DNA of 64,000 nt from positions 1,088-65,087 of the forward strand of contig CACFXU010000008.1 in assembly GCA_902570155.1 (NCBI GenBank), given 5' to 3'. Shown one piece after another: positions 2,639 through 64,000 of this stretch. The stretch is from an uncultured Alphaproteobacteria bacterium (lineage in GTDB: Bacteria > Pseudomonadota > Alphaproteobacteria > HIMB59 > GCA-002718135). A program made the translations under genes and the position numbers. Below the pieces are notes generated by a model that worked only from the letters and a program-made list of their open reading frames with translations, was not told the origin of the DNA and searched no databases. Within the stretch, counting starts at the first letter, position 1. Each line of letters opens with the position of its first letter.

Positions 2639-4749
<2,111 letters not shown>

Positions 4750-4750
<1 letters not shown>

Positions 4751-5061: not shown

Positions 5062-5063
5062 TA

Positions 5064-5107: not shown

Positions 5108-5109
5108 CT

Positions 5110-7147: not shown

Positions 7148-7151
7148 ATTA

Positions 7152-8207: not shown

Positions 8208-8209
8208 TA

Positions 8210-9046: not shown

Positions 9047-9089
9047 AATACTTGACAAAGTAATATTTATATTTACATGCATCTTCATT

Positions 9090-9371: not shown

Positions 9372-9380
9372 ATTTTTGTA

Positions 9381-34961: not shown

Positions 34962-35426
34962 CTAGAAATATTTTGAATTAAAATATACAAGCGGTTTCAA
35001 TTTATCATTAGATTGTACTTCTAATATCTTACATATAAATATTATGTGATCACCTTTTTTGATTTTATCTATTAGTTTACATTCAAGATTTGCTATACAA
35101 TTTGGTATAATTGCCGTTTTATAATTCCCTTCAATAAATTTTATATTTTCTAATTTAGGTGTAGTTGAGGCAAAATTATCAGATAATTTTTTTTGCTTAC
35201 TAGATAAAATATTTATTGATAAGAAATTTGTTTTTGAAAACTGTTTTATTGAAGATGAGTAATTGCCTAAAGAAAACAAAACCATAGGAGGGTTTAGAGA
35301 TAGAGAGTTAAATGAATTAACAGTTTTCCCATATATCGAATTATTATTTTTAACACATACAACAGTAATACCTGTCGAAAACTTACTAAGTGTTTTTTTA
35401 AAATTAATAGTGTTTACTTTTTTCAT
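34962..35426 (-). CDS. Flavin reductase-like domain protein
   Basis: 154 aa with the flavin-reductase fold pattern (FSTGITVV...NSFNSLSLNPPMVLFSL). Confidence 0.72.
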   Translation of the reverse strand: MKKVNTINFKKTLSKFSTGITVVCVKNNNSIYGKTVNSFNSLSLNPPMVLFSLGNYSSSIKQFSKTNFLSINILSSKQKKLSDNFASTTPKLENIKFIEGNYKTAIIPNCIANLECKLIDKIKKGDHIIFICKILEVQSNDKLKPLVYFNSKYF

Positions 35427-48431: not shown

Positions 48432-50179
48432 TGTCATTTTCAAAAAATGATCTTGAATTAATAAAATCAAAAATTCTTCTTTCACAAGAAATAGAAAAAA
48501 AAACAAAAGTCATAAAAAAAGGAAAAGATAGTTGGTGTTGTTGTCCATTTCATGATGAAAAAACTCCATCTTGCAAGATAAATGATGATTTAGGTTCTTA
48601 TTACTGTTTTGGATGTGGAGCCAAAGGAGATATATTTACAATATATACAGAGCTTTATAATTTTTCATTCCCTGAAGCAGTAAAAGAATTAGCTCAAAGA
48701 GTTGGTATTAGACTAGTTGATAATTTTGATTCAAATATGAATAAAAAAAATGATAAAATTTATAAAATTTTAGAAATTTCCACAAAATGGTTCCAAGACA
48801 ATCTAGAAGTAAATAAAGATTGTCAAAGATATTTAAATAAAAGAAATTTGTCAGACGAGACTATAAAATTTTTTAAGTTAGGATTTTCTTCTAATTCAAA
48901 ACAAACTCTTTATCAATTTCTAAAAGAACAAGGTTTTGAAGATAAAGAACTTCTTGAAAGTAATTTAATAAAATTAGATAAAAATAATAAGATACGTGAT
49001 TTTTTTTACAATAGACTTATGTTTCCAATTACAAATGAATATGGAAAAATTGTTGGATTTGGTGGTAGAGTATTAGATAATTCAAATCCTAAATATATTA
49101 ATTCACCTGAAAGTGATTTTTTTAAAAAAAGAAATATTTTGTTTAATCTTTTTAACGCTAAACAAACTATAAGGTCAAAAAAAAATATGCTTATTTGTGA
49201 AGGATATATGGATGTAATAAGTTTGTATGATAAAAATATTAAAACAGCTGTGGCTCCACTTGGCACCTCTTTGACTGATAGCCATCTTCAATTATCATGG
49301 AAATATGTAAACAAACCAACATTGATGTTCGATGGAGACTCTTCAGGATTAAAAGCTTCTTTCAAAAGTGCTATAATGTCTTTACCTTACTTAACTCCTT
49401 CTAAATTATTACAATTTGTCATACTTCCAAATGAATATGATCCTGATACTTTTATCAATGAATTTTCTTTAAAAAAATTTGCAACATATTTAACAACTCC
49501 ACTTTCAATAGTAGATTTTATATTTCAGGAATCTTCAAAATCAATTGATCTAAAAAAATCAGATAATAAGATTATTTTTGACAATTATATTGATGAATTA
49601 GTAAGTAATATAAAAGATACCAAAATAAGATATTTTTACAAAAATGAATTTAAGACTTTGTTTTTTAAAAAATTAAAATCATTTTCAAATACAACAAATA
49701 CAATCAATATTATTCCTACAAAAAACTCTTTGAAAGAAAAACAAATCTTTTCTTTTATAGCTGCATACTTAAATCACGTAAAATTAAGAAATAAAATATA
49801 TTCACTCTTATCTAAATCAGAATTATTAAATAAATATCAGTTAGAATTCTTAAATTTTATTCACAAAACAGATCTTGTAGAGACTGGAATAGATAATATT
49901 AAAACAGATAATTTATCAAAAATATTCTCTGAAATTTATAAAAAATCAACGGATAGCTCTATTTTTCAACTATTTCCTTATGCTAGCAATGGTTATAATG
50001 AAGACAATGCCCTAAAAGAAATTAATGAATCTATAAATAATTTAAATACAAGACTTTCAAATTTGAAAAAAATAAATAAAAGCCTAAATGATATTGATAA
50101 TAATCCATCAACAATGACATGGGATGAATTAAAAAATATTAGTTTTAATCTTCAAGATATTGAAGAGGTATTTGAATAG
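48431..50179 (+). CDS. dnaG: DNA primase
   Basis: 582 aa with a zinc-binding [13 protein letters not shown]...CFGCG motif and a TOPRIM domain (ICEGYMDV...FDGDSSG). Confidence 0.92.
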
Positions 50180-52340
50180 AGTTATGGCTAAAAAGAAAAA
50201 AAAAGTTACTAAGAAAAAAACTGCATTATCTAAAAAAAAGTCATCTGTTAAGAAGAATTTAAAAAAGAAAAACACTAAAGCAAGATCTAAAAAAAATCCT
50301 AAATCTAAAATTCTTAAGAAAACAAAAAAAACTGTTGCAAAAAAAGTTTCTAAAAAATTTGAAGCTAAAAATTTAAAAAAAGATAAACCTGCAAAAATAC
50401 CTAAAGCAATTTCAGGGTTTGAGGATAAAATCAAAGATATTTTTACAAAATTAATCAATAAACATAAAGTTGATGGAATATATACAAAAAAAATAATTGA
50501 GAAAGCAATACCAAAAAAACTTAGACTCGAAGAAAATATAGAAAAGTTTGAAAATTTTATTAAATCTAATGACATAAAAATTTACTCTGAAGAAGAAGCT
50601 CAAGAATTAATTTCATTAGCTAAAGAACAAGCAAATAAATCTGAAGAAGCTTCTGAAGATCAAGAAAAAAAACAAACAGGAAAAACTGACGACCCAGTAA
50701 GATTATATCTGAGAGATATGGGCGCAGTAGAGCTTTTAAGTCGCGAAGGAGAGATTGCAATTGCTAAAAGAATAGAAGCTGGAAGAGAGAAGATGATTGG
50801 AGCTATTTGTGAAAGTCCAATGACAATCAGATCAATAATAAATTGGAAAGATGCAATAAAAGATGGGACAATGTTATTAAGAGACATAGTTGATTTAGAA
50901 GCCACATACGACATGTCAGATATTTCTGATTCAAAACTTGATGATACATTTAAGTTAATTGAAAGTGGAGCAGATGAAAAAAATAATGATAAGAAAAAAG
51001 ATCAATCTGAAGATAATAATGACGAAAATAGTGATGGTGATCAGCAACAAGATGATGATGATGATAGTTTAAACGTATCTTTAGCAGCAATGGAAGAAAA
51101 ACTTAAGCCAAAAGTCTTAAACGATTTTAATGATATAACTAAATTATTCAAAAAGCTTCAAAAACATAGTCAAGAGTTAATAAATGCTGATAAAAAAAAT
51201 GAAAAAAACTACAATACCTTGGAAAAAAAATATTTAAAAATTCAAAAAGAAATGGTTGCCGCCATGAAAGCTGTACATTTTAATTCTACAACAATTGAAG
51301 CACTGATGGAGGCGTTATATGAGTTAAATAAAAAACTTCTTTTGCGTGAAGGTAAAATGCTCCGTATGGCAACGAGTGCTGGAGTTAAAAGAGAAGATTT
51401 TATATCTCAATATTTAAATTTCAACTTTGAAAAAAACTGGATTCAAAGTCTTTTAGCAACAAAAGATAAAAATTGGGAAAAGTTTATTAATAGAAATCAT
51501 ATTGAAATTAATAAAAATATTGAAGAAATCCGAGAAATACAATTAGCTTCTGAGTTACCTTTATCTGAATTTAGAAGAATAGTCGGCACTGTACAACAAG
51601 GTGAAAGATCTGCCAATAGAGCAAAAAAAGAAATGATAGAATCTAATTTAAGATTAGTTATTTCAATAGCAAAAAAATATACCAATAGAGGGCTACAATT
51701 TTTAGATTTAATCCAAGAAGGTAATATAGGTTTGATGAAAGCTGTAGATAAATTTGAATATCGCAGGGGTTACAAATTTTCTACTTACGCAACATGGTGG
51801 ATTAGGCAGGCAATTACAAGGTCCATTGCTGATCAAGCAAGAACAATTAGAATACCAGTTCATATGATAGAAACTATCAATAAAATAGTTAGAACTACAA
51901 GACAAATAATGTCAGAGATTGGAAGAGAGCCAACACCTAATGAATTGGCTGAAAGATTACATATGCCTTTAGATAAAGTTAAAAAAGTTTTAAAAATTGC
52001 TAAAGAACCAATAAGTTTAGAAACTCCAGTTGGTGATGAAGAAGATAGTTCTCTTGGCGATTTTATAGAGGATAAAAATGCACTTATACCTATAGAAGCT
52101 GCTGTAAAAAGTTCATTACGTGACACTACTACCAGAATTCTTTCATCTCTTACTCCTAGAGAAGAGAGAGTTCTTAGAATGAGGTTTGGTATTGGAATGA
52201 ATAGTGATCATACTTTAGAGGAAGTTGGGCAACAATTCAGTGTTACAAGAGAAAGAATAAGGCAAATAGAAGCAAAAGCACTAAGAAAATTAAAACATCC
52301 AACAAGAGCTAGAAAGTTAAAAACATTTCTTGACGAATAA
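50160..52340 (+). CDS. rpoD: RNA polymerase primary sigma factor (sigma-70) with Lys-rich N-terminal extension
   Basis: Regions 1.2-4.2 are clear ([50 protein letters not shown]). The first ATG at 50160 overlaps dnaG by 20 nt; an alternative ATG lies at 50184, just after the dnaG stop. Confidence 0.95.
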
Positions 52341-53167
52341 TGAAGCTAACGCTTCTTGGAACTGGGTGCCCTTCAATTGATTATAAACGGTGTGGATCAG
52401 CAAACTTAATTTGTTCAAAAAAAACTAAAATTCTAATTGATTGTGGTTCTGGTGTAACACAAAGATTAAACCAAAGTGGACATTCTTCTGCAGAGATTGA
52501 TGCATTATTACTTACACATTTGCACACTGACCATGTAATAGATTTATACCAATTAGTTATATCATCCTGGCATTCGGATAGAGATTCAATTTGGAAAATA
52601 TATGGTCCTAAAGGAACAAAAAAATTTGTTGATCAAATTTTTCTAGCTTGGAAAAATGAACGAAATTTAAGAATTTCTTATGAAAAAAGAAAATCTATAA
52701 AGGCTCTAAAATATAAAGTTTATGAATTTGATAAAACAGGTTCAATAAATATAAAAGATATAAAGTTTAAATATTTTGAAGTAGATCACAAGCCAGTACC
52801 ATATTCTTATGGTTTTTCATTTTATAATAATAAAAAGAAATTAACTATAAGTGGTGATACAAGACCATGCGAAAGTTTAATGCAAAATGCTCAGAACTCA
52901 GATGTTTTACTTCATGAAGTTTTTATAGAATATGAAATGAATAAAACATCAAAGCTAAGAACTAAAAAAACATTACATAATGTTAAAGAATATCACACTC
53001 CAAGTAATCTTGTTGGTAAAGTAGCTAAACTAACAAACTGTAAAAAACTTGTTTTAACACATTTTGTTCCAACAAGATTTAATGTTTCAAAATTAAAGAA
53101 AATTGTAAAAAAAGATTTTGGCAAAGATCCAATAATTGGAGAAGATTTATTAACAGTAAATATCTAA
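52340..53167 (+). CDS. MBL-fold metallo-hydrolase (RNase Z/ElaC-like)
   Basis: 275 aa with an N-terminal LLGTG...ILIDCGSG segment and the HxHxDH motif (THLHTDHVIDL). The ATG shares a base with the rpoD TAA (TAATG). Confidence 0.68.
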   Translation: MKLTLLGTGCPSIDYKRCGSANLICSKKTKILIDCGSGVTQRLNQSGHSSAEIDALLLTHLHTDHVIDLYQLVISSWHSDRDSIWKIYGPKGTKKFVDQIFLAWKNERNLRISYEKRKSIKALKYKVYEFDKTGSINIKDIKFKYFEVDHKPVPYSYGFSFYNNKKKLTISGDTRPCESLMQNAQNSDVLLHEVFIEYEMNKTSKLRTKKTLHNVKEYHTPSNLVGKVAKLTNCKKLVLTHFVPTRFNVSKLKKIVKKDFGKDPIIGEDLLTVNI

Positions 53168-53991
53168 CCAATCTTATTTAAAAATTTATCAAACTCTTCA
53201 TCTTTTATTTCAACAATATTTGATTTGGTTGGAAATTTTTTATTATTTACATCCTTAATAAAACTTTTAAGTCCTTGTATCGTGTCATCTAATAGCTTCT
53301 CATAGGACTTATTTGTATCCTTAAATACTTTTGCGTGACGAGGTACTCTATCAGTATTAGTACCTATAACATCTTGAATAAATAAAAACTCAACATCACA
53401 TCTAGGACCACTTCCCATAGACAATGTTAATAAATTTACTTTTTTTGTAATAATTTCTGCAACTCTATCTGGCACACATTCTACCTCAAGACCAATTGCA
53501 CCTGCTTGATCATATGCCAAAGCATCTTGATAAACTTTGTAGGCAGATATAGCATCTTTTCCTACTGCTTTGAAACCACCAGTCCATGTACTTTTATAAG
53601 GTATTAAGCCTATATGACTGACGGCTGGCAATCCTTCATTTCGAAGAGCTTCTATATATTTTGGACTATTACCGCAATAAACTGCATCGGCCCCATTTTC
53701 TCTTGCAATAAGAGCAGCATCAATTGCTTTTTCTGTAGAAGATAATTGACCAAGACCATAAATCATAAATGTATTTGGCGCTGCGTCTCGAATATCTTTA
53801 ATATGCGCATCCCTAAACCATCTATTTGTTGGCACACCTGTTCTTAATGTATCTTTTTTAAATGAAACAATTTGAATATCTATACCAGCTTGTTCAGCTG
53901 CATATGCTTCTAAAGCATTTGTTACATATAGTTCTGTTAATTTAACTTTTCCTTTTTTATCAAATAAATCTTTAACTGTAAGTTTTGACAT
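53164..53991 (-). CDS. PanB-like (ketopantoate hydroxymethyltransferase fold, ICL/PEP-mutase superfamily) protein of unknown function
   Basis: 275 aa. Alignable by eye to PanB (SHIGLIPYKSTWTGGFKAVGK; LEVECVP; LSMGSGPRCD), but the PanB metal/active-site motifs GDSLG, ADLPF and KIEGG are not recognisable. Confidence 0.68.
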   Translation of the reverse strand: MSKLTVKDLFDKKGKVKLTELYVTNALEAYAAEQAGIDIQIVSFKKDTLRTGVPTNRWFRDAHIKDIRDAAPNTFMIYGLGQLSSTEKAIDAALIARENGADAVYCGNSPKYIEALRNEGLPAVSHIGLIPYKSTWTGGFKAVGKDAISAYKVYQDALAYDQAGAIGLEVECVPDRVAEIITKKVNLLTLSMGSGPRCDVEFLFIQDVIGTNTDRVPRHAKVFKDTNKSYEKLLDDTIQGLKSFIKDVNNKKFPTKSNIVEIKDEEFDKFLNKIG

Positions 53992-55352
53992 TAATGATAT
54001 TTGGGTAAATATTTCCCGTGTGCTTCAATTAACTTATCAACCATTGCATATATTTCATCGATTGATAAATTTGCTCCAGTAAGGGGATCAAGCATTGCAG
54101 CATGATAGATGTGCTCTTTTTTATTTGTTAATGCAGCTTCAGCAGTCAATATTTGAACATTTATATTAGTTCTCATTAAAGCTGCTAAATGCTCTGGTAA
54201 GCGACCAGTTTTTTGTGGTTGATTACCTTTTGAATTAATTAAACAAGGAACTTCGACACAACAATTTGATGGTAAATTATCAATATATCCATCATTCATC
54301 ACATTACCATTAATTGTCACTCCATTGTTGTTTGCTACAGCATCCATTATGTATGATGCATATTCTTTTCCTCTTTTTAGAGGTTGATTATGTATGGGTG
54401 TCATATCTTTTTCCAAGTCATCCCAAAGCTTGATATTATTTTCACATCTATCAATGTATTCTTCTATGGGAATTTTATATTGATCAATTAAATCTTGTCT
54501 GTTCTGTTTTATAAACCAAGGAACATACTCAGCAAAATGTTCGCTAGACTCTGTAACAAAATAACCAAATCGTCTTAAAATTTCGTATCTTACTTTTTCA
54601 TGAAGTACTTTATCTGATTCACTGTCTTTACCTATACTTCTAGTTGATGTTATTTTATCACTGACAATATCATCAGCTAATTTTTTTAATTTTGGATAAA
54701 GATCCTCTCCACCATTGCCATTCTTTTTTGTAAACTTTTTATAGAAAGCCATGTGGTTAATTCCAGCACAGAGATAATCAATATCCTCAATTTTTTCATT
54801 TAAATCTCTCGCAAGCATTTCTGCAGTTCCTTGTACAGAATGACAAAGTCCTATTGATTTAATTCCAGGGCAAGCATTATTTATTGCTATCATGTTTGAA
54901 CACATTGGGTTCACATATTGTAACCATAAAGAATTTGGACAAAGATCCATTATGTCTTTACCAATATCTACTAAAACGGGAATCGTTCTTAGGCCTCTCA
55001 TAATTCCACCAATACCAAGGGTATCAGCTATTGTCTGTTTTAACCCAAATTGATTTGGAATATCAAAATCGATTACTGTTGATGGTTTATAACCACCTAC
55101 CTGTATAGTTGACTGAACAAAATCAGAACCTGCTAAAGCTTCTTTTCTATTAGTGTATGATTTTATATTTGGGGATGCATTTAACTTTTTTGCAATTACA
55201 TTTAATAATTCATGAGAAATTTTTAATCTTTTTTCATCAATATCTACCAGTGCAATATCCATTTTTTTAAAATCATCAATGAACATTAAATCAGTAAAAA
55301 TATTTTTGGTAAATACTGCGCTACCAGCACCAATGATTGTGAGTTTAGTCAA
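53991..55352 (-). CDS. Glycoside hydrolase family 4 (NAD+/Mn2+-dependent) paralog 1
   Basis: 453 aa with an N-terminal Rossmann segment KLTIIGAGSAVF, YVNPM, the Mn-ligand context IGLCHSVQG, and AGINHMAFY. Confidence 0.85.
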   Translation of the reverse strand: MTKLTIIGAGSAVFTKNIFTDLMFIDDFKKMDIALVDIDEKRLKISHELLNVIAKKLNASPNIKSYTNRKEALAGSDFVQSTIQVGGYKPSTVIDFDIPNQFGLKQTIADTLGIGGIMRGLRTIPVLVDIGKDIMDLCPNSLWLQYVNPMCSNMIAINNACPGIKSIGLCHSVQGTAEMLARDLNEKIEDIDYLCAGINHMAFYKKFTKKNGNGGEDLYPKLKKLADDIVSDKITSTRSIGKDSESDKVLHEKVRYEILRRFGYFVTESSEHFAEYVPWFIKQNRQDLIDQYKIPIEEYIDRCENNIKLWDDLEKDMTPIHNQPLKRGKEYASYIMDAVANNNGVTINGNVMNDGYIDNLPSNCCVEVPCLINSKGNQPQKTGRLPEHLAALMRTNINVQILTAEAALTNKKEHIYHAAMLDPLTGANLSIDEIYAMVDKLIEAHGKYLPKYH

Positions 55353-56085
55353 TTTTATACTCCATAATTGAATTATGATTTGCTACTTTTAACTGGTTAT
55401 AAGAAGCATGTCCAATTTCTTTATAAGGATTATTGGATTTAGTATTAAAGCACACTATTAATGTTCTTCTAGAATTTTGTGATTTATTTGCATCAGAAGA
55501 GTGCAATAGATTTGCATGAAAGAATAATGCATCTCCTGGTTCTGCTTCAATATAAACAGACTCATGTCTTTTTTCTAATTCTCTTATTCTTTCATTATCA
55601 GCTGTTTGTTCAGGTGTGTCTGATCGTTCATGGCTAATTCTTCCAACACGATGAGAACCCTTTAATACTTTAAGGCAACCATTTTCTTTATTTGCTTTAT
55701 CTAACATTATAAAACATGATGCCATATCTGGATAAAGACAAGCATTGTGATACCAATAACCATAATCTTGATGCCAATCAAATCCACCATCGCCTGGATT
55801 TTTCCAAATAATTTTAGAATGATAATGATAAACTTCATCATTTAAGAATATTTCCATTGGTTTGACTATTCTTTCATTAGTAGAAAATTTTCCAAATAAA
55901 TCTTCTGAAGGATGATTCCACATTGTCATTGTTAATTTTCCAGTTGAAGTATTAGTCTCTCTTGCACTTTCTTCTTTATCTTTTCTAATGGCTATATATT
56001 GATTTAATTTATTGATTTCTTCATTAGAAAAGAGTTTTTTCTTTAGGACAAAGCCATTTGAGATGAATTCCTTTATGTCACTCAT
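55345..56085 (-). CDS. PhyH-family Fe(II)/2-oxoglutarate dioxygenase
   Basis: FDWHQDYGYW (HxD), a distal His in FFHANLLHSS, and Arg in SRRTLIV. I prefer the ATG at 56085 (MSDIKEF...) over the TTG at 56127 used in the ORF track. Confidence 0.8.
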   Translation of the reverse strand: MSDIKEFISNGFVLKKKLFSNEEINKLNQYIAIRKDKEESARETNTSTGKLTMTMWNHPSEDLFGKFSTNERIVKPMEIFLNDEVYHYHSKIIWKNPGDGGFDWHQDYGYWYHNACLYPDMASCFIMLDKANKENGCLKVLKGSHRVGRISHERSDTPEQTADNERIRELEKRHESVYIEAEPGDALFFHANLLHSSDANKSQNSRRTLIVCFNTKSNNPYKEIGHASYNQLKVANHNSIMEYKID

Positions 56086-56157
56086 ATAAATAAACTTTAA
56101 TTTCTTTGATAAATTAAATATTGTCAATAAATATTAGGGAGTATAGGATATATAAGT

Positions 56158-57642
56158 ATGAAAGTTAGTTTTATTGGAGCTGGAAGTATAGGATTTACTC
56201 AAACATTAGTAAGAGATCTGCTAAAGGTTCCTGAATTTCATGATACAAATTTTTTTTTTCACGATATTTCTGAAAAAAATTTAGATTTTGTTTCAAAACT
56301 TATCCAAAAAGATATTGATGCTAATAATCTTCCTGCAACTATTGAACAATCAACCGATAGAAAAAAAGCATTAGAGGGAGCAAAATATATAATTAATTGT
56401 ACACGCATTGGAGGACTAGAAGCATTTGAGCATGATATTAATATTCCTCTTCAATATGGTGTAGATCAGTGTGTAGGGGACACCATTTGCGCTGGAGGAA
56501 TTCTATATGGTCAAAGAAATATTCCCCAAACCTTAAATTTTTGTAAAGATATAAAATCTTATTCGGATACAAATGCTTTGTTTTTGAATTATTCAAATCC
56601 AATGGCCATGAACACTTGGGCAGCAATATCAGAAGCAAAAGTAAATACAGTTGGACTATGTCACGGTGTTCAAGGTGGCGCAAAACTAATCTCTAAAGCA
56701 TTGGGATCTGAAAACTCAAAAGATCTTGAATATATGTGTAGCGGAATTAATCATATGACCTGGTACATAGATCTGAAATTCAAAGGAAAAAAAGTATCAA
56801 AAGAAGAACTTATAGATGCATTGGAAAGACATCCAGAAATTTCTAAACAAGAAAAAGTAAGAATTGATATTCTAAAAAGATTTGGTTTATTTTCTACTGA
56901 AAGTAATGGCCATTTAAGTGAGTATCTTCCATGGTATAGAAAAAGAGTTGAGGATATTCCTAAATGGATAGATTTGTCCAATTGGATACATGGCGAAACG
57001 GGAGGATATTTAAGAGTTACATCAGAGAAAAGAAATTGGTTTGAAGAAGACTTTGAAAAATTTTTGAGTGAGTCGGGTATCGATTTAAATAATCATAAAA
57101 GATCTTCTGAGCATGGTAGTTATATAATTGAGTCAATTGAAACAAATAGACCTTATCGTGGTCATTTTAATGTAGTTAATAATGGTACTATAACAAATTT
57201 ACCAGATGACTGTGTTATTGAAAGTACTGGAACAGTTGATAAAGATGGAATTAAAATGATTAAAGGTGTTGAGCTTCCAATGGCCTGTGCATCACTTTGT
57301 AGAACATCGATAGATGTTCAGAGAATGGCAGTCAAAGCTGCAATAGACGGAGATCTAAATTTATTAAAATTAGCAGTTTTGCAAGATCCATTAGTTAGTG
57401 CAGTTTGTGCACCTGATGAAGTTTGGTCTATGGTAGATGAAATGATTGTAGCTCAATCTAAATGGCTTCCTCAATATCAAAACGAAATTGAACCAGCTCT
57501 AGAGAGAATTAAAAATTCTAATGTAAAAAAGAAAAATTTTAAAGGTGCTGCAAGAATGAAAACTAGATCTCCTGAAGAACTAAAAAATGATGAAGCATCT
57601 TCTTTACTTGTGGAAGCACAAGCATTCGAATTTGATGCTTAA
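56158..57642 (+). CDS. Glycoside hydrolase family 4 (NAD+/Mn2+-dependent) paralog 2, with C-terminal extension
   Basis: 494 aa with KVSFIGAGSIGF, NYSNPMAM, VGLCHGVQG and SGINHMTWY. An extra charged tail of about 50 aa follows the GH4 C-domain. AGGA lies 9 nt upstream of the ATG. Confidence 0.85.
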   Translation: MKVSFIGAGSIGFTQTLVRDLLKVPEFHDTNFFFHDISEKNLDFVSKLIQKDIDANNLPATIEQSTDRKKALEGAKYIINCTRIGGLEAFEHDINIPLQYGVDQCVGDTICAGGILYGQRNIPQTLNFCKDIKSYSDTNALFLNYSNPMAMNTWAAISEAKVNTVGLCHGVQGGAKLISKALGSENSKDLEYMCSGINHMTWYIDLKFKGKKVSKEELIDALERHPEISKQEKVRIDILKRFGLFSTESNGHLSEYLPWYRKRVEDIPKWIDLSNWIHGETGGYLRVTSEKRNWFEEDFEKFLSESGIDLNNHKRSSEHGSYIIESIETNRPYRGHFNVVNNGTITNLPDDCVIESTGTVDKDGIKMIKGVELPMACASLCRTSIDVQRMAVKAAIDGDLNLLKLAVLQDPLVSAVCAPDEVWSMVDEMIVAQSKWLPQYQNEIEPALERIKNSNVKKKNFKGAARMKTRSPEELKNDEASSLLVEAQAFEFDA

Positions 57643-57645
57643 GCA

Positions 57646-59175
57646 ATGAAAGAAATAAAAAATGTCGTAATTTTAGGTGGAGGCACTGCAGGATGGCTAG
57701 CTGCATATATATTAAGTGACTTTTTTTATTCTAACAAACTTAATACAAATGTTAAAATAATAGAGTCTTCTAAAATACCAACAATTGGTGTTGGAGAGGG
57801 GACTACCAGCATATTTTATGAATTTTTAAAAAAATATAATTTAGATGAATCTGATTTTTTGAAAGAAACAAAAGCTACATTAAAATTTGGAATAGTACAT
57901 AAAGACTGGAAAGAATTAGGGTATACGTATTATGGACCTATAGATGACCCTCAATTAATTGCTCCAAAAAATAAACCAGAAAATTTCGAGTATTTAAAAG
58001 CATATGCTGTCGCTGCTGGAAGACCGGTTTCTGAAATTCATTTGCATACAATGCTTATGCAAAATAAAAAAGTACCTTATACTTTTAAAAATAATAATTT
58101 AGAACTAATAAGTCCATTTTATTATGCATATCATTTTGATAATTCTCAAGTTGCAAGCTATTTAAATAAAAGATCTAAAAATATTGAGATTATTGATGAT
58201 ATTTATACATCATCAACACAAAATGTAGATGGATCAATTAAATCTCTATGTTTTGAAAGTGGTTTAGAATTGGATGTTGATTTAGTTATTGATTGTAGTG
58301 GTTTTAAAAAATTGATTATTGGAGATGTATTCAAAACCAAATGGATCTCTTATCAAGATAATCTTCCTGTAAATAGAGCGATGCCATTTTTTTTAGACAT
58401 AAAAGAAGAAAACTACATTAATTATACTTTAGCTTGGGCCCAAAAGTATGGATGGATGTGGCAAATTCCTACACAAGAAAGAATTGGTGCTGGTTATGTT
58501 TATTGTGATCAATTTATCTCACCTGATCAAGCACAAGAAGAAATAGAAAAAGTTCTTGGTCACAAAATTGAACCAAGACGAGACATTAAGTTTAACAGTG
58601 GTAGGTTAGAAAAATATTGGGTTAAAAATTGTTTAGCTATCGGTTTATCATCTGGGTTCCTCGAACCCTTAGAAGCTACTTCTATTCATAGTACTTTGAT
58701 TCAAATTATTTTATTTGCAACTGAATATCTTAAGAAAGAAATGGACTTTAATAATGAAGAATTAATATCTAATTTTAACAATCGAATTGGACGACAATTT
58801 GATGATTTTAAAACTTTTTTAAATATGCACTATGTTTCCAAAAGAAGAGATTCAAAATTTTGGCAATACGTTGCAGATGAATGTATAAGCGAAGAAACAA
58901 AAAAATTTATTTCTTTATGGCAAGATGAACTTCCAAGTCTTGATCATTTTGATGATTATCTCTCTGGCCTTCCTCATGTACAATCACAGTTATACTACCC
59001 AGTCGTTGATGGTCTTGGTCTATTAAGTAAGGAATCCGCAAGAGAACAAATGAGCAAATATGACTTACGCTCAACATCAAGAAAATATTACAATGATTTT
59101 TCTGAGAAATTTAACGAAATAATCAAGGATTCTCTTACTCACAGTCAATATATTAATCTTTCAGTGAATTCTTAG
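57646..59175 (+). CDS. Flavin-dependent halogenase homolog (tryptophan-halogenase family)
   Basis: 509 aa with GGGTAGW (GxGxxG), IGVGEGT, TKATLKF (aligns to the PrnA catalytic-Lys segment), WMWQIP (WxWxIP) and FLEPLEATSI (catalytic-Glu segment). Confidence 0.8.
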   Translation: MKEIKNVVILGGGTAGWLAAYILSDFFYSNKLNTNVKIIESSKIPTIGVGEGTTSIFYEFLKKYNLDESDFLKETKATLKFGIVHKDWKELGYTYYGPIDDPQLIAPKNKPENFEYLKAYAVAAGRPVSEIHLHTMLMQNKKVPYTFKNNNLELISPFYYAYHFDNSQVASYLNKRSKNIEIIDDIYTSSTQNVDGSIKSLCFESGLELDVDLVIDCSGFKKLIIGDVFKTKWISYQDNLPVNRAMPFFLDIKEENYINYTLAWAQKYGWMWQIPTQERIGAGYVYCDQFISPDQAQEEIEKVLGHKIEPRRDIKFNSGRLEKYWVKNCLAIGLSSGFLEPLEATSIHSTLIQIILFATEYLKKEMDFNNEELISNFNNRIGRQFDDFKTFLNMHYVSKRRDSKFWQYVADECISEETKKFISLWQDELPSLDHFDDYLSGLPHVQSQLYYPVVDGLGLLSKESAREQMSKYDLRSTSRKYYNDFSEKFNEIIKDSLTHSQYINLSVNS

Positions 59176-59262: not shown

Positions 59263-61290
59263 ATGGGTATTGAAACCAAATTTACTTTCAAGAGTAAGGC
59301 AGCAAGTTTACTTGTAGGTGTCAGCATGGTTGCTATGACTTCTGGTGCTAGTGCTCTTGAAACTCTACCACCTGATAAAAGTATGTCAGGTATAGAAGTT
59401 GAGTTAGTTGGAAGAGATGATTTATACTCTTACAAAAGTTGTGATAGTTATAATGAAGCTCCTTTAACTGCAGCTTATGTTGAAGCTGGAAAGCTACCAC
59501 CAGTAGCTGAGAGACTTCCAAAAACACCAATGATGATGTCAAAAGCTCAAATGGTTGATGGAATTGGTGATTATGGCGGAACATTTCGTCATGTTATTGG
59601 AGGAAGACCTGAAGGTTGGAACTGGATGGCTGGACAACATCAAGGTTGGGGTGGCATTAGCATGCAGTTAATGCAATCATTAACAAGACTAGGTCCACTA
59701 TGGCAAGTTAAACCTGAAGAAGCTTTACCTCTTCCAAACCTAGCAACTGACTGGGAGTTTAATAGCGATCGCACTACTTTAACTATGAATTTAGTTGAAG
59801 GTGTAAAATGGTCTGATGGAGATCCATTTGATACTGAAGATATTGATTTTTGGTGGAACGATAATGTTCAAAATGCAAATGTAAACTCGAGGCTTCCAAA
59901 GGATGCTCTTGGTGCAGGAACGACAGTTGATATTTTAGGACCATATTCGTTTAGGTTTAATTTTGATTCTCCAAAAGGTAATGCTGTTCTATCACAGCTT
60001 GCGCATATGGGAGGTGCTCCAGGGCCTTCTCACATTTTAAAACCACATCACCCAGATTATAATAGTGATGCAACTTACGATACATATACAATGGCTTTAC
60101 CACCTGATGAGGTGCCTATAGCAACACTTGGAGCTTATGTTCCAGTTGCTCATAAAATTGACGAACTGGTGGTGATGAAAAGAAATCCTTATTACTGGAA
60201 AGTTGATGAAGAATGTAATCAACTTCCATATTACCATGAAACGATTTATAAATTAACCACATGGGATGATAGAACTACGCAAGCTCTAGCAGGAACTGGT
60301 GATTATTCTAATATGGAAAATCCTGGTAACTACGTTGAAGCCTTAAAGCAAAATAAAGATCCTAACTCGCCTGTTAGATCAGTCTTTGGTTCTAGATCTT
60401 TGACATGGAAATTATATGTAAATCTTTCCTCTGAATTTGGAGCTCAAGATGATTATGATAGAGAGTTAAGAAAACTTTTCAGAAACTTGGAGTTTAGAAA
60501 AGCACTTTCTCATGCAATGGATAGAGACACTATGGGTCAATCTGTTGCGAGAGGTCCTTTCTTCCATCCTCATGCTGGAGGATTTTCTGCAGGATCTCCT
60601 TTTCATCGCTTTGAGGATTCTATTTATTATGGATACAATGTTGATGGTGCCAATTCAATCTTAGATGGTTTAGGTCTTATTGATAGTGATGGAAACGGTA
60701 TTAGAAATTTTCCTAATGGAGGAGAAGATATAGCGTTGGACATCCTTTTCAGTAATGAAAGATCAACTGATATTAAAATTGGGGATAGTATAGTTCCAAT
60801 GTTTGAAGCGGTAGGATTAAAACCTATATTAAAACCTTCAAACGATACGGCAGCAATTACTGATGCGGGAAATTGGAATTTATATATTAATAGACACAAT
60901 TGGCTTGTTGTAACGAAAAACATGGCTGATGAGTTACCAATAACTCCTGAAAATCCTGTTCAACATAAAAGTAATGAAGGTGATTTACTTCCATTTGAAA
61001 AAACTTTAGCTAATTTAGGTAACGACATTCTTGCTACTAATGATTTGAAAGTTGTTGCAGAAAAAGCTTACGAAATTCAAAAGGTAAGTACTGAAAATGT
61101 ATATTCAATAGGTTTAATACAAACACCTGCTGCACTTTTAATTAACAAAAGGATAAAGAATAATCATCCAGGCACTCCAGTATATATGTACGAATGGGGT
61201 GAAGATGCAATTTTTAGGGAAAGACTTTATACCCCTAAAGCTGATCAAATAGATGAGTTCTTACCTGGTGTTTTGGCTGAATATAAATAA
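59263..61290 (+). CDS. ABC transporter substrate-binding protein, family 5 (peptide/opine/alpha-galactoside type), 675 aa
   Basis: Signal peptide with an ASA-L cleavage-like site (LLVGVSMVAMTSGASALE) and a family-5 core (VKWSDGDPFDTEDIDFWW). Strong SD GGGAGGA at 59252-59258. Confidence 0.85.
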   Translation: MGIETKFTFKSKAASLLVGVSMVAMTSGASALETLPPDKSMSGIEVELVGRDDLYSYKSCDSYNEAPLTAAYVEAGKLPPVAERLPKTPMMMSKAQMVDGIGDYGGTFRHVIGGRPEGWNWMAGQHQGWGGISMQLMQSLTRLGPLWQVKPEEALPLPNLATDWEFNSDRTTLTMNLVEGVKWSDGDPFDTEDIDFWWNDNVQNANVNSRLPKDALGAGTTVDILGPYSFRFNFDSPKGNAVLSQLAHMGGAPGPSHILKPHHPDYNSDATYDTYTMALPPDEVPIATLGAYVPVAHKIDELVVMKRNPYYWKVDEECNQLPYYHETIYKLTTWDDRTTQALAGTGDYSNMENPGNYVEALKQNKDPNSPVRSVFGSRSLTWKLYVNLSSEFGAQDDYDRELRKLFRNLEFRKALSHAMDRDTMGQSVARGPFFHPHAGGFSAGSPFHRFEDSIYYGYNVDGANSILDGLGLIDSDGNGIRNFPNGGEDIALDILFSNERSTDIKIGDSIVPMFEAVGLKPILKPSNDTAAITDAGNWNLYINRHNWLVVTKNMADELPITPENPVQHKSNEGDLLPFEKTLANLGNDILATNDLKVVAEKAYEIQKVSTENVYSIGLIQTPAALLINKRIKNNHPGTPVYMYEWGEDAIFRERLYTPKADQIDEFLPGVLAEYK

Positions 61291-61302
61291 ATAAATCAAT
61301 AC

Positions 61303-61332
61303 AATGGCCCATTTTTCAATGGGCCATTTTTA
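61303..61332 (+). terminator. Intrinsic terminator/attenuator hairpin between the SBP and permease genes
   Basis: AATGGCCCAT (61303-61312) pairs with ATGGGCCATT (61319-61328) around loop TTTTCA, followed by a T-run to 61331. It is the only GC-rich hairpin I found in an intergenic gap. Confidence 0.7.
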
Positions 61333-61338
61333 CAATTT

Positions 61339-62364
61339 ATGGCTTTTTTATTTTTTTTATTAAAACGAATTATTGCAACTATTCCTCTATTAATTGCTAT
61401 AACTCTTGTTGCTTTTCTTCTTGTTCAGGCAATGCCCGGTGATTATGCAACTCAATGGAAAGCTCAAACAATGTCAATGGGAGGTGTCAGTGAAGAGGAT
61501 GCTGAGGCTCAAGCTGAAGCTTTAAGAGTTAGATTAGGTTTAGATAAACCACTTTACATTCAATATTTTAATTGGGTAAAAAATATCACTCTTTATTGGG
61601 ATTTAGGAGAATCATTTATTCAACAGAGATCAGTTAATGAAGCAATAGGAGATAGAGTTCCACGAACATTATTATTAGCTTTTATATGTTACTTTAATGC
61701 CGTAACTATTGGAATATTAGCTGGCGTCTATGCTGCTACACATCAATATCAACTAGGCGATCAACTTGCTACAGTCTTTACATTTTTAGCTTTTTCAATT
61801 CCTAAGTTTATTGTAGCGTTAGTTATATTATACTTCTGGGCTATTAAATTTCATTCACCATATTATGGCTCAATATTTTCACAAGAATATGTTTTACAAG
61901 AGGGATGGTGGAGTCTTGCAAAAACATGGGATTTCTTGCTCCATACCTGGCCAATTATTGCAGTTGGAAGTTTTGTAGGAGCAGGATATCAAATGAGAAT
62001 GATGCGAGGTAATTTATTAGATGTTTTAAAAATGCAATTTATAGAAACCGCAAGGGCTAAAGGGTTAAAGGAAAGTAAGATTATATGGAAACATGGTGTT
62101 CCAAACGCTTTACATCCAATAATCATGAATCAAGGTAGAAGCGTTGGCTATTTAATTGAAGGAGAGATTGAAGTAGCAATTGTATTAGCAATACCAACTA
62201 TTGGACCATTGATTTTATCATCCGTTACCACAATGGATATATATGTTGCATCTTCAATATTTTTGATTTTGTCTCTCGTATTAGTAATTGGTAATTTTAT
62301 TGCAGATATAATATTGGCATTACTTGATCCTCGTATTAGAGATATGTCCGGAGGTGAGGCTTAA
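61339..62364 (+). CDS. ABC transporter permease (DppB/OppB type)
   Basis: 341 aa, about 6 TM, with the EAA-loop region FIETARAKGLKESKIIWKHGVPNALHP. Confidence 0.9.
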   Translation: MAFLFFLLKRIIATIPLLIAITLVAFLLVQAMPGDYATQWKAQTMSMGGVSEEDAEAQAEALRVRLGLDKPLYIQYFNWVKNITLYWDLGESFIQQRSVNEAIGDRVPRTLLLAFICYFNAVTIGILAGVYAATHQYQLGDQLATVFTFLAFSIPKFIVALVILYFWAIKFHSPYYGSIFSQEYVLQEGWWSLAKTWDFLLHTWPIIAVGSFVGAGYQMRMMRGNLLDVLKMQFIETARAKGLKESKIIWKHGVPNALHPIIMNQGRSVGYLIEGEIEVAIVLAIPTIGPLILSSVTTMDIYVASSIFLILSLVLVIGNFIADIILALLDPRIRDMSGGEA

Positions 62365-63491
62365 TGACTTCCAAAAATAAAAATGGATCTCTTAATGCTG
62401 AGGCACAAAAATTTTCAAATATAAATTCCCATTGGCACCTTTCATATTTAAGATTAAGAAAAAATCGTTACGGAATGTTTGGTTTATATGGTGTGTTGTT
62501 TATTTTTTTTATTGCTATTTTTGCAGAATTTTTATCACCTCATAGTTATAAGAAGACTGTTCAGGATGAATTATATAATCCACCACAATTAATTCGATTT
62601 ATAGATTCTGAAGGTAATTTTCATTTAAGACCATTTGTATTTAAACTTATTGAAGAAATGGACATGGAAACTTTTGAATTCTCTTACTCTAATTCAGATG
62701 AAATGATACCTATTTATTTTTTTATTCAGGGTGATGAATATTCTATTTTTGGTTTTAAGACTAAGCTTCGGTTATTTGGCAATAACGAAGGTAATATTCA
62801 CTTATTGGGTACTGATAATATGGGGAGAGATATTCTTTCAAGAATGTTTGTCGGAACACAAATTACTATGCTCTTTGCTTTACTTGCAGTTTCAGCATCA
62901 TTGGTTATTGGATTAATGGTAGGTATAAGCTCAGGATATTTTGGAGGAACGTATGATTTAATAGCGCAAAGAGTGACAGAATTTGCATTATCATTTCCAT
63001 CCTATCCATTATATTTTGCGTTAGTAGCTCTCTTGCCAAAAAGAGCCGATGAGACGACAGTGTTTGTACTATTTGCTGGAATAATTGTTTTATTAAATTG
63101 GGCATCAATTGCTAGAGAGATTAGAGGTAAAACTTTTTTAGTAAGAAACCTAGAATTTGTTAGAGCAGCAAGAGCTTTAGGTGCATCTAGATCAAGAATA
63201 ATGATTCAACATATATTTCCAAATACCTTATCTCACGTAATTGTCTGGACATCATTTTGTATTCCTCTAATTATTTTAGTTGAAACTTTTTTAAGTTTCA
63301 TCGGAGTAGGTGTTCAGCATCCTATGGTTTCATGGGGTGTAATGTTAAATCAGGCTTTAGATATACAGAGCTTTGCATATGCTCCCTGGATGATTTCTCC
63401 AGTTGGAATGATTATATTGACTGTTTTAGCTTTTAATGCTTTTGGAGATGGAATAAGGGACGCGGTAGATCCATATGCAGTCACAAAATAA
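62364..63491 (+). CDS. ABC transporter permease (DppC/OppC type)
   Basis: 375 aa with the EAA-loop region FVRAARALGASRSRIMIQHIFPNTLSH. The ATG overlaps the upstream stop (TAATG). Confidence 0.9.
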   Translation: MTSKNKNGSLNAEAQKFSNINSHWHLSYLRLRKNRYGMFGLYGVLFIFFIAIFAEFLSPHSYKKTVQDELYNPPQLIRFIDSEGNFHLRPFVFKLIEEMDMETFEFSYSNSDEMIPIYFFIQGDEYSIFGFKTKLRLFGNNEGNIHLLGTDNMGRDILSRMFVGTQITMLFALLAVSASLVIGLMVGISSGYFGGTYDLIAQRVTEFALSFPSYPLYFALVALLPKRADETTVFVLFAGIIVLLNWASIAREIRGKTFLVRNLEFVRAARALGASRSRIMIQHIFPNTLSHVIVWTSFCIPLIILVETFLSFIGVGVQHPMVSWGVMLNQALDIQSFAYAPWMISPVGMIILTVLAFNAFGDGIRDAVDPYAVTK

Positions 63492-64000
63492 TCAGAAATT
63501 ATTAGATCTGAAAAATGCTGAAGTAAAATTCAGTGTAGAGGGAGGAATTGTCAATGCAGTAAATGATATATCTTTTGACATAATGAAAGGTGAAACCCTT
63601 GCTGTTGTTGGTGAGTCAGGTTCAGGAAAATCAGTCACAGCTAGAACTATAATGAAAATGCTACCTAAGAATTCATCAATTGGGTCAAATTTCAAGATTG
63701 AGTTTAAAGATATAGATATTACAAATTTAACTCAGGAACAGATGAGACAAATCAGAGGTGATACTATTAGTATGATATTTCAAGAGCCTCTTACAAGTTT
63801 AAATCCTCTCCATAGGATTGGTAGTCAATTGATAGAGGTATTACGAGAACACAATAAAATTGATAAAATTACTGCAAAAGAAAGAGCCCTTGAATTATTA
63901 AAAGAAGTACAAATTCCTCAGCCAGAAGAAAGATTAAATCAATATCCGCATCAGTTATCAGGGGGTCAAAGACAAAGAGTTATGATTGCAATGGCTATTG
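63475..64000 (+). CDS. ABC transporter ATP-binding protein (DppD/OppD type), N-terminal 175 aa (runs off window); not in the supplied ORF track
   Basis: Hand translation from the ATG at 63475 reads MQSQNNQKLLDLKNAEVKFSVEGG... with Walker A GESGSGKS, Q-loop MIFQEP and signature LSGGQRQRV. No stop before the window end. 17-nt overlap with the permease gene. Confidence 0.9.
   Translation, partial: MQSQNNQKLLDLKNAEVKFSVEGGIVNAVNDISFDIMKGETLAVVGESGSGKSVTARTIMKMLPKNSSIGSNFKIEFKDIDITNLTQEQMRQIRGDTISMIFQEPLTSLNPLHRIGSQLIEVLREHNKIDKITAKERALELLKEVQIPQPEERLNQYPHQLSGGQRQRVMIAMAI

Follow-up and report, generated by a model that had tools for sequence, protein, structure and literature searches.

The window (the whole 64,000-nt stretch of DNA analysed here) carries an open reading frame that starts and ends exactly at 57646 and 59175 on the forward strand and encodes a 509-residue homologue of the flavin-dependent halogenases (FDHs). 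Directly upstream, with a gap of only 3 nt between its stop codon and the FDH start, lies the gene for GH4b (56158..57642, forward), a 494-residue family-4 glycoside hydrolase of the alpha-galactosidase subfamily that was recognized by Pfam (PF02056 and PF11975) and by NCBIfam PRK15076 (552 bits versus a cut-off of 486). A second enzyme of the same family and subfamily, GH4a (53991..55352, reverse; 453 residues), was identified by Pfam and by PRK15076 (596 bits versus 486) and is a deep paralogue of GH4b. Downstream, 87 nt after the end of the FDH gene, a strong SD sequence (GGGAGGA) precedes the gene for a 675-residue periplasmic SBP (59263..61290, forward; Pfam SBP_bac_5), predicted to be an alpha-galactoside binder of the MelB/AgpA type from its match to the A. 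fabrum alpha-galactoside-binding protein MelB (PDB 6epy; E = 1.3e-167, 562 bits, residues 24–659). The first-pass annotation of this DNA had placed the FDH between a GH4 and an SBP gene, and these distances bear it out. The SBP gene is separated from the gene for ABC permease 1 (Opp/Dpp type, 61339..62364, forward) by a palindromic hairpin with an 11-bp stem (61303..61328), which may be an mRNA-stabilizing or attenuating element. Permease 1 is followed by ABC permease 2 (OppC type, 62364..63491, forward), both assigned by Pfam, and by the N-terminal part of an ABC ATPase (63475..64000, forward) with the Walker A sequence GESGSGKS and the signature LSGGQRQR. The ATPase gene continues past the end of the window; full-length equivalents are found in loci L091 and L001. 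All genes flanking the cluster were scanned with Pfam, and no AraC-type regulator was found among them.

Two more genes lie on the reverse strand beside GH4a. The product of the first (55345..56127) is a PhyH-family Fe(II)/2-oxoglutarate dioxygenase (Pfam PF05721, 115 bits). As annotated, the gene shares 8 nt with the start of GH4a, and translation probably begins at the ATG at 56082. Among solved structures, GriE and EctD are the nearest, and the presence of an HxD motif (WHQD) makes the protein hydroxylase-type rather than halogenase-type. A SyrB2-type halogenase was ruled out by this motif and by a TIGR01762 score far under the cut-off. The second gene (53164..53991) encodes a PanB-like protein of the ketopantoate hydroxymethyltransferase family that falls under the NCBIfam PanB cut-offs (116 bits versus 272). 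Among the loci of the FDH clade described below, the PanB-like gene is found only in those of SAR11 type, and the same is true of this PhyH gene (77–98% identity). The PhyH genes of the SAR11 and L003 lineages are not orthologous (E = 1.1), and a GH4-PhyH-FDH triad as one conserved unit is therefore unsupported.

All of the halogenase motifs quoted in the first-pass annotation were found in the translation of the FDH gene: GGGTAGW at residues 11–17, IGVGEGT at 47–53, TKATLKF at 75–81, WMWQIP at 270–275 and FLEPLEATSI at 338–347. PF04820 (Trp_halogenase) matched residues 6–433 with 355 bits (cut-off 21; E = 7e-106) and was the only Pfam family detected at E ≤ 0.001. A sequence search of the PDB gave 30 matches, all of them halogenases, with E-values from 1e-64 to 2e-39. 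The AF2 model (pLDDT 91.8) superimposes over its full length on Thal, PyrH, PrnA and Xcc4156 with TM-scores of 0.83–0.90, and the best 50 Foldseek matches listed were all halogenases. Apart from these, NCBIfam gave only weak hits in the N-terminal part, to LodB and CmlS, at scores far under the respective cut-offs. This confirmed that the product is a full-length Trp_halogenase-family protein and not a chance match. At the thresholds used, Pfam, the PDB and Foldseek matched halogenases only, in agreement with its earlier assignment as a halogenase rather than a monooxygenase or dehydrogenase.

Residues were mapped onto PrnA (a reference sequence identical to 2apg_A at 538 of 538 positions) in HMMER and MAFFT alignments that included 28 members of the FDH clade and 58 out-group FDHs. 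The three glycines of the GxGxxG motif (G11, G13 and G16 in G11-G12-G13-T14-A15-G16-W17) are invariant across the clade. The WxWxIP residues of PrnA (W272, W274, I276 and P277) correspond to W270, W272, I274 and P275, the halide-site residue T348 corresponds to T345, and the catalytic residues K79 and E346 correspond to K80 and E343; all are conserved in 28/28 clade members and 58/58 out-group FDHs. The expected conservation of both the catalytic Lys and the catalytic Glu was thus upheld, as was the placement of the Glu within FLEPLEATSI. The proposed register for the Lys, in which TKATLKF would align with FKAAIKF and put K76 on PrnA K79, was not: since both programs placed ATLK80 on GAFK79, the catalytic Lys is K80. 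K76 is variable within the clade, whereas K80 is invariant.

The substrate-binding region is different. In place of the indole-stacking residues H101 and F103 of PrnA, 28/28 clade members have G97 and I99, inside an invariant GPIDDP sequence, while the aromatic pair is present in 56 of the 58 out-group FDHs. The tryptophan-binding segment of PrnA (Y443, Y444, F454 and W455) is deleted in the alignment. Altogether, 27 positions are fixed in the clade and unlike the out-group, including those equivalent to PrnA I52, F84, H101, F103, G104, Y449 and N459. The pocket, which was read from the alignment to the PrnA sequence and not from three-dimensional coordinates, appears to be remodelled at T54, H85, G97, I99, D100, H444 and L449. 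Since the catalytic hallmarks are kept but the tryptophan- and indole-binding residues are lost, the protein, judged by its aligned residues, is not a tryptophan halogenase. Of the earlier view that its residues define an active tryptophan-type halogenase, the catalytic part stands and the tryptophan part does not. The protein is a candidate halogenase by its catalytic residues, and conserved residues alone do not amount to proof of halide chemistry. The GPIDDP, H85 and T54 signature is predicted to mark a substrate class other than that of the indole-type FDHs.

The FDH belongs to a monophyletic, alphaproteobacterial clade (98/100 neighbor-joining bootstrap replicates) with 41–99% identity among its members and 28–36% to FDHs outside. 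A sister FDH from Salinarimonas (L028) adjoins a radical-SAM/SPASM gene, which gave no functional clue. The exact FDH sequence recurs in a 448-member cluster at 90% identity from many ocean samples. Homologues at 65% identity are labelled Pelagibacteraceae and the GC content is 28%, and these two observations are what the premise of a minimal genome in the first-pass annotation would rest on. The bacterium is apparently of SAR11 type. The reading frame is intact in all clade genomes examined, and comparison with relatives at 86–99% identity gave omega values of 0.035–0.057 (about 0.04), the same as for the neighbouring GH4b. Such purifying selection supports the suggestion in the first-pass annotation that the gene has a real but unassigned role.

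Linkage to the surrounding genes was assessed in 27 clade loci collected first, five added later, and 58 out-group FDH loci. A GH4a orthologue, the most consistent FDH neighbour in other genomes, shares the locus in 26 of the first 27, mostly together with GH4b (58–64% identity between orthologues), SBP and permease genes, and a GH4 gene is also present in 5/5 of those added later. None of these genes was found in the out-group loci (0/58). The co-occurrence with GH4 and family-5 SBP genes that had been proposed as a check is strong (26/27 versus 0/58). The usual gene order is SBP-permease-permease-ATPase-GH4a-FDH-GH4b. In Sulfitobacter, the FDH gene lies between two GH4 genes with 4-bp overlaps, and within SAR11 it has stayed in the operon despite occupying two different positions; the linkage has outlasted several rearrangements in at least three orders. 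The clade is a previously undescribed branch that is, judging from gene content, almost confined to operons predicted to import and cleave alpha-galactosides. A full-text literature search found no paper linking Trp-halogenase homologues to GH4, alpha-galactosidase, SAR11 or PULs, and halogenases are absent from the main text of Blanvillain 2007 and of the Alteromonas TBDT paper.

The closest counterparts of the operon are the agp/mel operons of Rhizobiaceae, including A. fabrum MelB with AgaL1/AgaL2 and the operons of R. etli p42e and Sinorhizobium. Common to all are a MelB-type family-5 SBP (the window protein is about 42% identical to those of Rhizobium and Sinorhizobium), a pair of Opp-type permeases, a fused ATPase and two GH4 alpha-galactosidases that are paralogues. 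The mel operon is reported to serve the uptake of raffinose-family oligosaccharides (PMC10100860, citing Meyer et al. 2018). Since the SBP is homologous to crystallized MelB over its full length, we assign the surrounding genes, on homology, to an agp/mel-type alpha-galactoside operon in which the FDH is probably an accessory, optional insert. The rhizobial operons have no FDH, whereas the SAR11 version adds the FDH, the PhyH dioxygenase and the PanB-like gene. Orthologous operons without FDH nest among those that contain it. The gene is present in Sulfitobacter mediterraneus M342, where its product is WP_259956315, and in Devosia rhodophyticola, and is missing from Qingshengfaniella and Rhizobium etli, and the GH4 pair in the window is orthologous to the pairs of R. 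etli and Qingshengfaniella. Among 248 plasmid or chromid records with the SBP, one has a clade FDH. That FDH-less operons are common and nested in this way means that the core pathway does not require the FDH.

The clade FDH can be compared with two groups of known proteins. Like PrnA, RebH, Thal and PyrH, with which it shares the full-length structure (TM-scores of 0.85–0.90), it has the equivalents of K79, E346 and the halide site. Those enzymes are FADH2-dependent, and the clade FDH presumably depends on free FADH2 as well. It is only 24–29% identical to them, its tryptophan-binding residues are replaced or deleted, and, unlike secondary-metabolite FDHs, which usually come with a partner reductase, it is not in a biosynthetic cluster: it is surrounded by GH4, SBP and permease genes, with no reductase adjacent. 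The second group consists of the orphan FDHs BrvH (6frl), Xcc4156 (6y1w), Shewanella 2pyx and their relatives. These share its fold (TM-scores of 0.84–0.89), with GxGxxG, WxWxIP, Lys and Glu all present, similarly lack the PrnA Y443/Y444/W455 segment and an adjacent reductase, and are likewise genomically attached to sugar-import systems. BrvH and Xcc4156 are reported to brominate indole in vitro (PMC5945002, PMC7754283 and PMC7336383), although their native substrates are unknown (PMC7754283 and PMC5945002). The BrvH/Xcc4156-type proteins are only 28–36% identical to the clade FDH, which forms the separate, well-supported clade described above, and their setting differs. The orphans lie downstream of a TonB-dependent receptor (TBDR; within 6 kb in 40/58 out-group loci), often as two to four tandem paralogues, whereas the clade FDH is a single copy beside GH4 genes and an ABC importer, with a TBDR in 0/27 loci. 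The statement in the first-pass annotation that Trp-halogenase homologues recur in carbohydrate loci is consistent with the TBDR and sugar-uptake linkage that we saw on annotated replicons and loci.

The flavin-reductase-like gene noted earlier at 34962..35426 (reverse) indeed encodes a stand-alone flavin reductase of the HpaC/RebF/PrnF family (PF01613 Flavin_Reduct, 113 bits). It lies 22 kb from the FDH gene, and no reductase gene is adjacent to the latter. None was found beside the FDH in any clade locus or in any of the TBDR-linked orphan FDH loci checked; the only locus with an adjacent reductase was L070, a secondary-metabolite-type locus from Streptomyces. Because this arrangement is normal for carbohydrate-locus FDHs, the lack of an adjacent reductase is unremarkable. 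The reductase falls in a 90%-identity cluster of 1231 members, compared with 448 for the FDH. A dedicated partnership between the two is unsupported, since the reductase cluster is larger and the two genes were linked in none of the loci examined. The reductase is probably a housekeeping gene and a candidate for supplying FADH2 in trans.

Most likely, the FDH genuinely uses FADH2, O2 and halide, and its substrate is a polar compound other than tryptophan that is tied to the imported alpha-galactosides. In its full form, as a cytoplasmic two-component halogenase of a distinct alphaproteobacterial subfamily, recruited as an accessory to an agp/mel operon and directed at a non-tryptophan substrate, we give this reading a probability of about 0.45. 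FADH2 would be supplied by a free-standing flavin reductase, such as the PF01613 protein at 34962–35426, and would react with O2 on the FDH to form FAD-C4a-hydroperoxide. Chloride or bromide would be oxidized at the conserved halide site (W270/W272 and T345/S346) to hypohalous acid, which would pass through the tunnel to K80 and E343, where an electron-rich position of the substrate would be halogenated. The substrate would sit in a pocket that has apparently given up the aromatic indole clamp and gained the polar residues T54, H85, D100 and H444. Most likely it enters through the MelB-like ABC importer, being either an alpha-galactoside whose aglycone is reactive or an aglycone that the two GH4 enzymes release. 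Because the basic sugar pathway works without it, the FDH probably broadens or alters the range of substrates that the operon handles. The need for halide, the nature of the substrate, its link to the transporter and the choice of reductase are inferred. The known ligands of MelB/AgpA-type transporters are melibiose, raffinose and galactinol, which offer an FDH no electron-rich carbon of aromatic or enol type; some other substrate must therefore be assumed.

The same chemistry favours a different reading, which we consider a good deal less probable but worth serious attention: the enzyme would be a true halogenase for which the operon provides only an induction cue. Alpha-galactosides would signal algal or plant exudate, and the enzyme would act on an endogenous or ambient small molecule, such as indole or a phenolic, to give a halogenated product used in signalling, defence or detoxification. 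The sugars of MelB-type systems are, by established chemistry, not FDH substrates, and the operon can do without the FDH. FDHs join varied sugar-uptake systems (TBDR-FDH-GH95 and LacI-TBDR-FDH-RICIN, with a TBDR in 40/58 out-group loci), and their attachment to many systems regardless of the sugar suggests a generic role in carbohydrate scavenging. However, the clade pocket has lost the aromatic clamp (H101/F103) that the other orphans keep and that fits indole-like substrates. Translational coupling to GH4 and a rate of divergence matched to that of GH4b also suggest a closer tie than shared induction, and signalling or defence would be hard to square with a free-living, SAR11-like oligotroph.

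It is more doubtful still that the fold has turned to halide-independent flavin chemistry, as a monooxygenase or oxidase acting on a sugar or aglycone, with the halogenase motifs merely inherited. The catabolic context, the strongly remodelled pocket and the presence of a second oxygenase (PhyH) alongside in two marine lineages would fit, and no halogenated metabolite is known from SAR11. But the WxWxIP motif is thought to hold substrates off the flavin, and a monooxygenase would have no need for the motif residues, so that drift would be expected; instead, the 28 clade and 58 out-group FDHs show no variation in WxWxIP, K80, E343 or the halide-site Thr, and Trp_halogenase is the sole Pfam family at the threshold applied. 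A non-functional passenger, decaying or hitchhiking, is scarcely credible. Many orthologous operons lack the FDH, and the Sulfitobacter copy is on an IS-flanked plasmid segment, but the low omega values, intact reading frames and invariant active-site residues, the linkage kept through rearrangements in three or more orders and the 448-member ocean cluster all argue against it, and an omega of about 0.04 effectively rules it out.

A more specific form of the halogenase reading, in which primary catabolism includes a halide-dependent step catalysed by the FDH, for instance cryptic halogenation or hypohalite oxidation that activates an imported glycoside, its aglycone or the released sugar for further breakdown, seems to us unlikely. 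If true, it would give a flavin-dependent halogenase a catabolic role for the first time. Given the apparent SAR11-type host, halogen-handling enzymes would then take part when a common algal alpha-galactoside is turned over in surface seawater, and this role could also explain why FDH homologues lie beside carbohydrate-uptake systems across Proteobacteria. If the clade enzyme truly halogenates, strong purifying selection is preserving halogen chemistry in a SAR11-like oligotroph whose genome is AT-rich (28% GC) and densely packed, which would bear on the cycling of organohalogens and carbon in the sea and, given the polar pocket, on biocatalysis.

To our knowledge, hundreds of Trp-halogenase-family genes occur in proteobacterial carbohydrate loci, none with a known physiological substrate. 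The near-confinement of the clade to predicted alpha-galactoside operons thus offers a concrete route to testing orphan halogenase function. The gene is a clean handle, being single-copy and translationally coupled between two GH4 alpha-galactosidases; the transporter has a crystallized homologue with defined ligands (MelB); and natural pairs of operons with and without the FDH exist in cultivable relatives.

The open reading frame at 57646–59175 (+ strand, 509 aa), placed exactly as in the first-pass annotation and carrying all of the motifs quoted there, encodes a member of the flavin-dependent halogenase (FDH) family. A Pfam profile search matched it to PF04820 (Trp_halogenase; 355 bits, E = 7e-106) and to no second family at E ≤ 0.001, and the only NCBIfam hits, LodB and CmlS, were weak, N-terminal and well under their cut-offs. 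All 30 distinct matches from a PDB sequence search were FDHs (E = 1e-64 to 2e-39). An AlphaFold2 model made from 32 clade sequences (see below) was confident (pLDDT 91.8, pTM 0.90); its entire chain superimposed on Thal, PyrH, AbeH, PrnA, RebH, Xcc4156 and 2pyx with TM scores of 0.83–0.90, at identities of only 24–29%. Residues were mapped through a MAFFT alignment of 87 FDHs, with the tryptophan halogenase PrnA as the ruler (538/538 identical to PDB 2apg_A). K79, E346, W272/W274/I276/P277 and the halide-site T348 of PrnA correspond to K80, E343, W270/W272/I274/P275 and T345. The earlier conclusion that the catalytic lysine is conserved holds, although the register was four residues off (K76 claimed, K80 found). 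Forty-seven positions, including the Lys, Glu, WxWxIP and FAD motifs, were near-universal over all 87 sequences. The protein falls outside both the strict tryptophan halogenases and the group of orphans linked to TonB-dependent receptors (TBDRs).

A locus scan limited to a single genome for each species yielded 80 loci, in which identity to the FDH broke sharply between one set at 40–99% and all others at ≤36%. The former comprised SAR11-type single-cell genomes (SAGs), Kaistia, Devosia, Bauldia, Aestuariivirga, Tabrizicola, Histidinibacterium, Rhodobacter, Pelagimonas, Cypionkella and other Rhodobacterales; the latter came from Caulobacterales, Sphingomonadales, Alteromonadales, Cellvibrionales, Burkholderiales and Streptomyces. 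Linkage was assessed by tblastn of the window's neighbouring genes against all loci. GH4a, one of the two family-4 glycoside hydrolases of the window (53991–55352, − strand), had an orthologue in 26 of the 27 clade loci, mostly as the immediate neighbour of the FDH; the remaining locus was a 4.8-kb contig fragment. The second hydrolase, GH4b (56158–57642, +), the substrate-binding protein (SBP; 59263–61290, +) and both permeases (61339–62364 and 62364–63491, +) were also present in most of the GH4a-bearing loci. No orthologue of GH4a, GH4b, SBP or the permeases was found by tblastn in any of the 58 out-group loci. The co-occurrence with GH4 and family-5 SBP genes envisaged in the first-pass annotation was thus borne out in other genomes. 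Five more clade loci, fetched independently, had the same linkage, and the GH4-linked FDHs were monophyletic in an NJ tree (bootstrap 98/100). The clade is a new, apparently undescribed FDH variant, partnered in an operon with GH4 α-galactosidases.

The usual gene order in Rhodobacterales and Hyphomicrobiales is SBP-permease-permease-ATPase-GH4a-FDH-GH4b. Within SAR11 the FDH follows either GH4b, as in the window, or the ATPase, but always lies inside the operon. In the window, 3 nt separate the GH4b stop from the FDH start, with no terminator-like site between these two genes. On a Sulfitobacter mediterraneus plasmid the operon genes have 4-bp overlaps, with an HTH regulator upstream and IS elements on the flanks. 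There (NZ_CP081110, 136 kb; locus 2177–16568) the whole operon lies between IS6 and IS3 transposases, which suggests that this FDH-containing α-galactoside operon moves as a unit. A third lineage (L003–L005) has GH4a-PhyH-FDH adjoining an MGH1-like hydrolase, GH2 and GH32, and has the look of an island for small-glycoside catabolism. The FDH sister to the clade, from Salinarimonas sp. NSM (L028, 9986–13165), adjoins a radical-SAM/SPASM protein and has no GH4, SBP5 or TBDR match in its locus. It carries a WGPIDDP motif of the type found in the clade pocket (below), so the pocket remodelling may be older than recruitment to the GH4 operon.

The literature searched gave no account of tryptophan-halogenase homologues recurring in carbohydrate loci, and the first-pass claim to that effect was therefore tested directly on the loci. 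Catenovulum has the arrangement LacI-TBDR-FDH-RICIN and Asticcacaulis TBDR-FDH-GH95. A TBDR lay within 6 kb in 40/58 out-group loci (in 28 cases co-oriented and upstream) versus 0/27 clade loci, making the clade the ABC/GH4-linked counterpart of TBDR-linked orphans such as BrvH and Xcc4156. Two to four tandem FDH paralogues were frequent in out-group loci, as is likewise described for BrvH (PMC5945002); several tandem sets (L030, L043, L046, L056, L057, L072 and others) included a very divergent copy of ~20–22% identity. The clade FDH, unlike these orphans, was always single-copy. PMC5945002, PMC7754283 and PMC7336383 report that BrvH and Xcc4156 brominate indole in vitro and give their native substrates as unknown.

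Over its full length the SBP is homologous to MelB, the crystallised "periplasmic α-galactoside-binding protein" of Agrobacterium fabrum (6epy; E = 1.3e-167, 562 bits). Uptake of raffinose-family oligosaccharides is reported for the mel operon (PMC10100860, with reference to Meyer et al. 2018). The two GH4 proteins (596 and 552 bits) both exceed the NCBIfam α-galactosidase subfamily cut-off of 486; the ABC ATPase, starting at 63475, is partial and runs beyond the window end. MelB/AgpA-type SBPs occurred in 248 plasmid or chromid records, chiefly from Rhizobium and Sinorhizobium, only one of which bore a clade FDH. Operons without it include R. etli p42e (AraC / GH4-SBP-perm-perm-ATPase-GH4) and Qingshengfaniella, Paracoccaceae (HTH / SBP-perm-perm-ATPase-GH4-GH4). 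In the GH4 tree the FDH-less copies nest within FDH-containing Hyphomicrobiales and Rhodobacterales groups, for GH4a and GH4b alike. By this comparison the FDH, present in some lineages and missing from close relatives, is an accessory to what is otherwise an ordinary α-galactoside operon of the agp/mel type.

The SBP and permeases of the window (59263–63491) share only 42–50% identity with their counterparts in the other SAR11-type arrangement (L001/L007/L092), versus 76–90% for the flanking GH4a, PhyH and PanB-like genes. Their best matches (51–54%) are in Rhodobacteraceae loci (L023, L026), and GC climbs to 0.32–0.35 across 58–64 kb from ~0.28 elsewhere, together suggesting that the transporter cassette was swapped for a xenologue within SAR11. 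At 61303–61328, between the SBP and the first permease, a palindrome (AATGGCCCATT..AATGGGCCATT; 11-bp stem) could set the expression ratio of the two.

The window has a GC content of ~28%, the locus is ~99% identical to two SAGs labelled "uncultured Alphaproteobacteria" (AG-891-E17 and AG-913-M07), and FDH homologues at 65% identity carry the NCBI label Pelagibacteraceae, from which a SAR11-type host can reasonably be inferred. The FDH differs from the 99%-identical SAGs by 27–32 synonymous and 5 non-synonymous changes (ω ≈ 0.04), and ω is 0.057 against an 86%-identical relative. The values for GH4b are the same, and divergence has kept pace in the two genes, each of which is 65% identical at the amino-acid level in the deepest SAR11 comparison. 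The exact FDH sequence sits in a 448-member cluster (90% identity) with NCBI, JGI, ENA and Tara sources. Judged by selection, the gene is functional.

In the alignment, 27 positions were fixed in the clade yet rare in the out-group, several of which line the tryptophan pocket of PrnA or its RebH/Thal equivalents. PrnA I52, F84, H101, F103, G104, Y449 and N459 are replaced by T54, H85, G97, I99, D100, H444 and L449. The aromatic clamp that holds the indole, H101 and F103, is retained in 56/58 out-group FDHs, and an invariant GPIDDP motif replaces it in 28/28 clade members. The Y443/Y444/W455 segment of PrnA is absent from the clade, likewise from other orphans. With clamp and segment both missing, the sequence indicates a substrate other than tryptophan, and probably other than a stacked indole; judged from the alignment, the clade pocket appears larger and more polar.

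The ORF at 34962–35426 is a PF01613 flavin reductase (113 bits), a family that includes HpaC, RebF and PrnF. Searched against all 94 loci, it had a single match, in a Streptomyces locus (L070, Streptomyces sp. NPDC058955, 10001–12106), where the reductase gene directly follows the FDH. This two-component pair of secondary-metabolite type served as positive control for the search, which found no reductase near the FDH in any clade or TBDR-linked locus. The missing neighbour, correctly noted for the window, is therefore no peculiarity of it, but the rule for such FDHs. The reductase falls in a larger cluster (1231 members) than the FDH, which fits a housekeeping enzyme, cluster size being only a rough guide.

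The original observation holds up, and the cautious first interpretation is supported and sharpened. We tentatively favour, at a probability of about 0.45, a genuine FADH2/O2/halide-dependent halogenase that would work through K80/E343, be supplied with reduced flavin in trans by a reductase, and target a polar non-tryptophan compound connected with the cargo of the MelB-like importer. The main difficulty is chemical: no electron-rich carbon to halogenate is known in melibiose, raffinose or galactinol, the known ligands of such transporters, and many genomes run the operon without an FDH. Halide-dependent "cryptic" chemistry serving catabolism, improbable as a specific proposal, overlaps with the genuine-halogenase reading and is no separate alternative.

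A halogenase merely co-induced with the operon and acting on another small molecule is conceivable, if rather doubtful. Halide-independent flavin chemistry is unlikely given the invariant WxWxIP, Lys, Glu and halide-site Thr, and the selection and synteny data make a non-functional passenger highly improbable. Some probability is reserved for readings beyond these. The GH4 partnership makes the role of orphan FDHs in sugar-uptake loci, a long-standing question, experimentally tractable.

Among the neighbouring genes, one (55345–56127, −), which shares 8 nt with the start of GH4a, encodes a PhyH-family Fe(II)/2OG dioxygenase. It has an HxD motif, and its closest resemblance is to ectoine hydroxylase and the leucine hydroxylase GriE. 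In the L003 lineage a non-orthologous PhyH overlaps the start of the FDH, by which measure an O2-dependent hydroxylase was recruited to the system at least twice. The PanB-like protein (53164–53991, −) falls short of the PanB cut-off in NCBIfam (116 bits, 272 needed), matches PanB structures at ~60 bits, and is unlikely to be a genuine ketopantoate hydroxymethyltransferase; its gene lies beside GH4a in SAR11-type loci only, is 89–97% conserved there and falls in a 1076-member cluster. An RpoD-like sigma factor (50160–52340, +; TTG start as listed) has ~90 extremely lysine-rich N-terminal residues.
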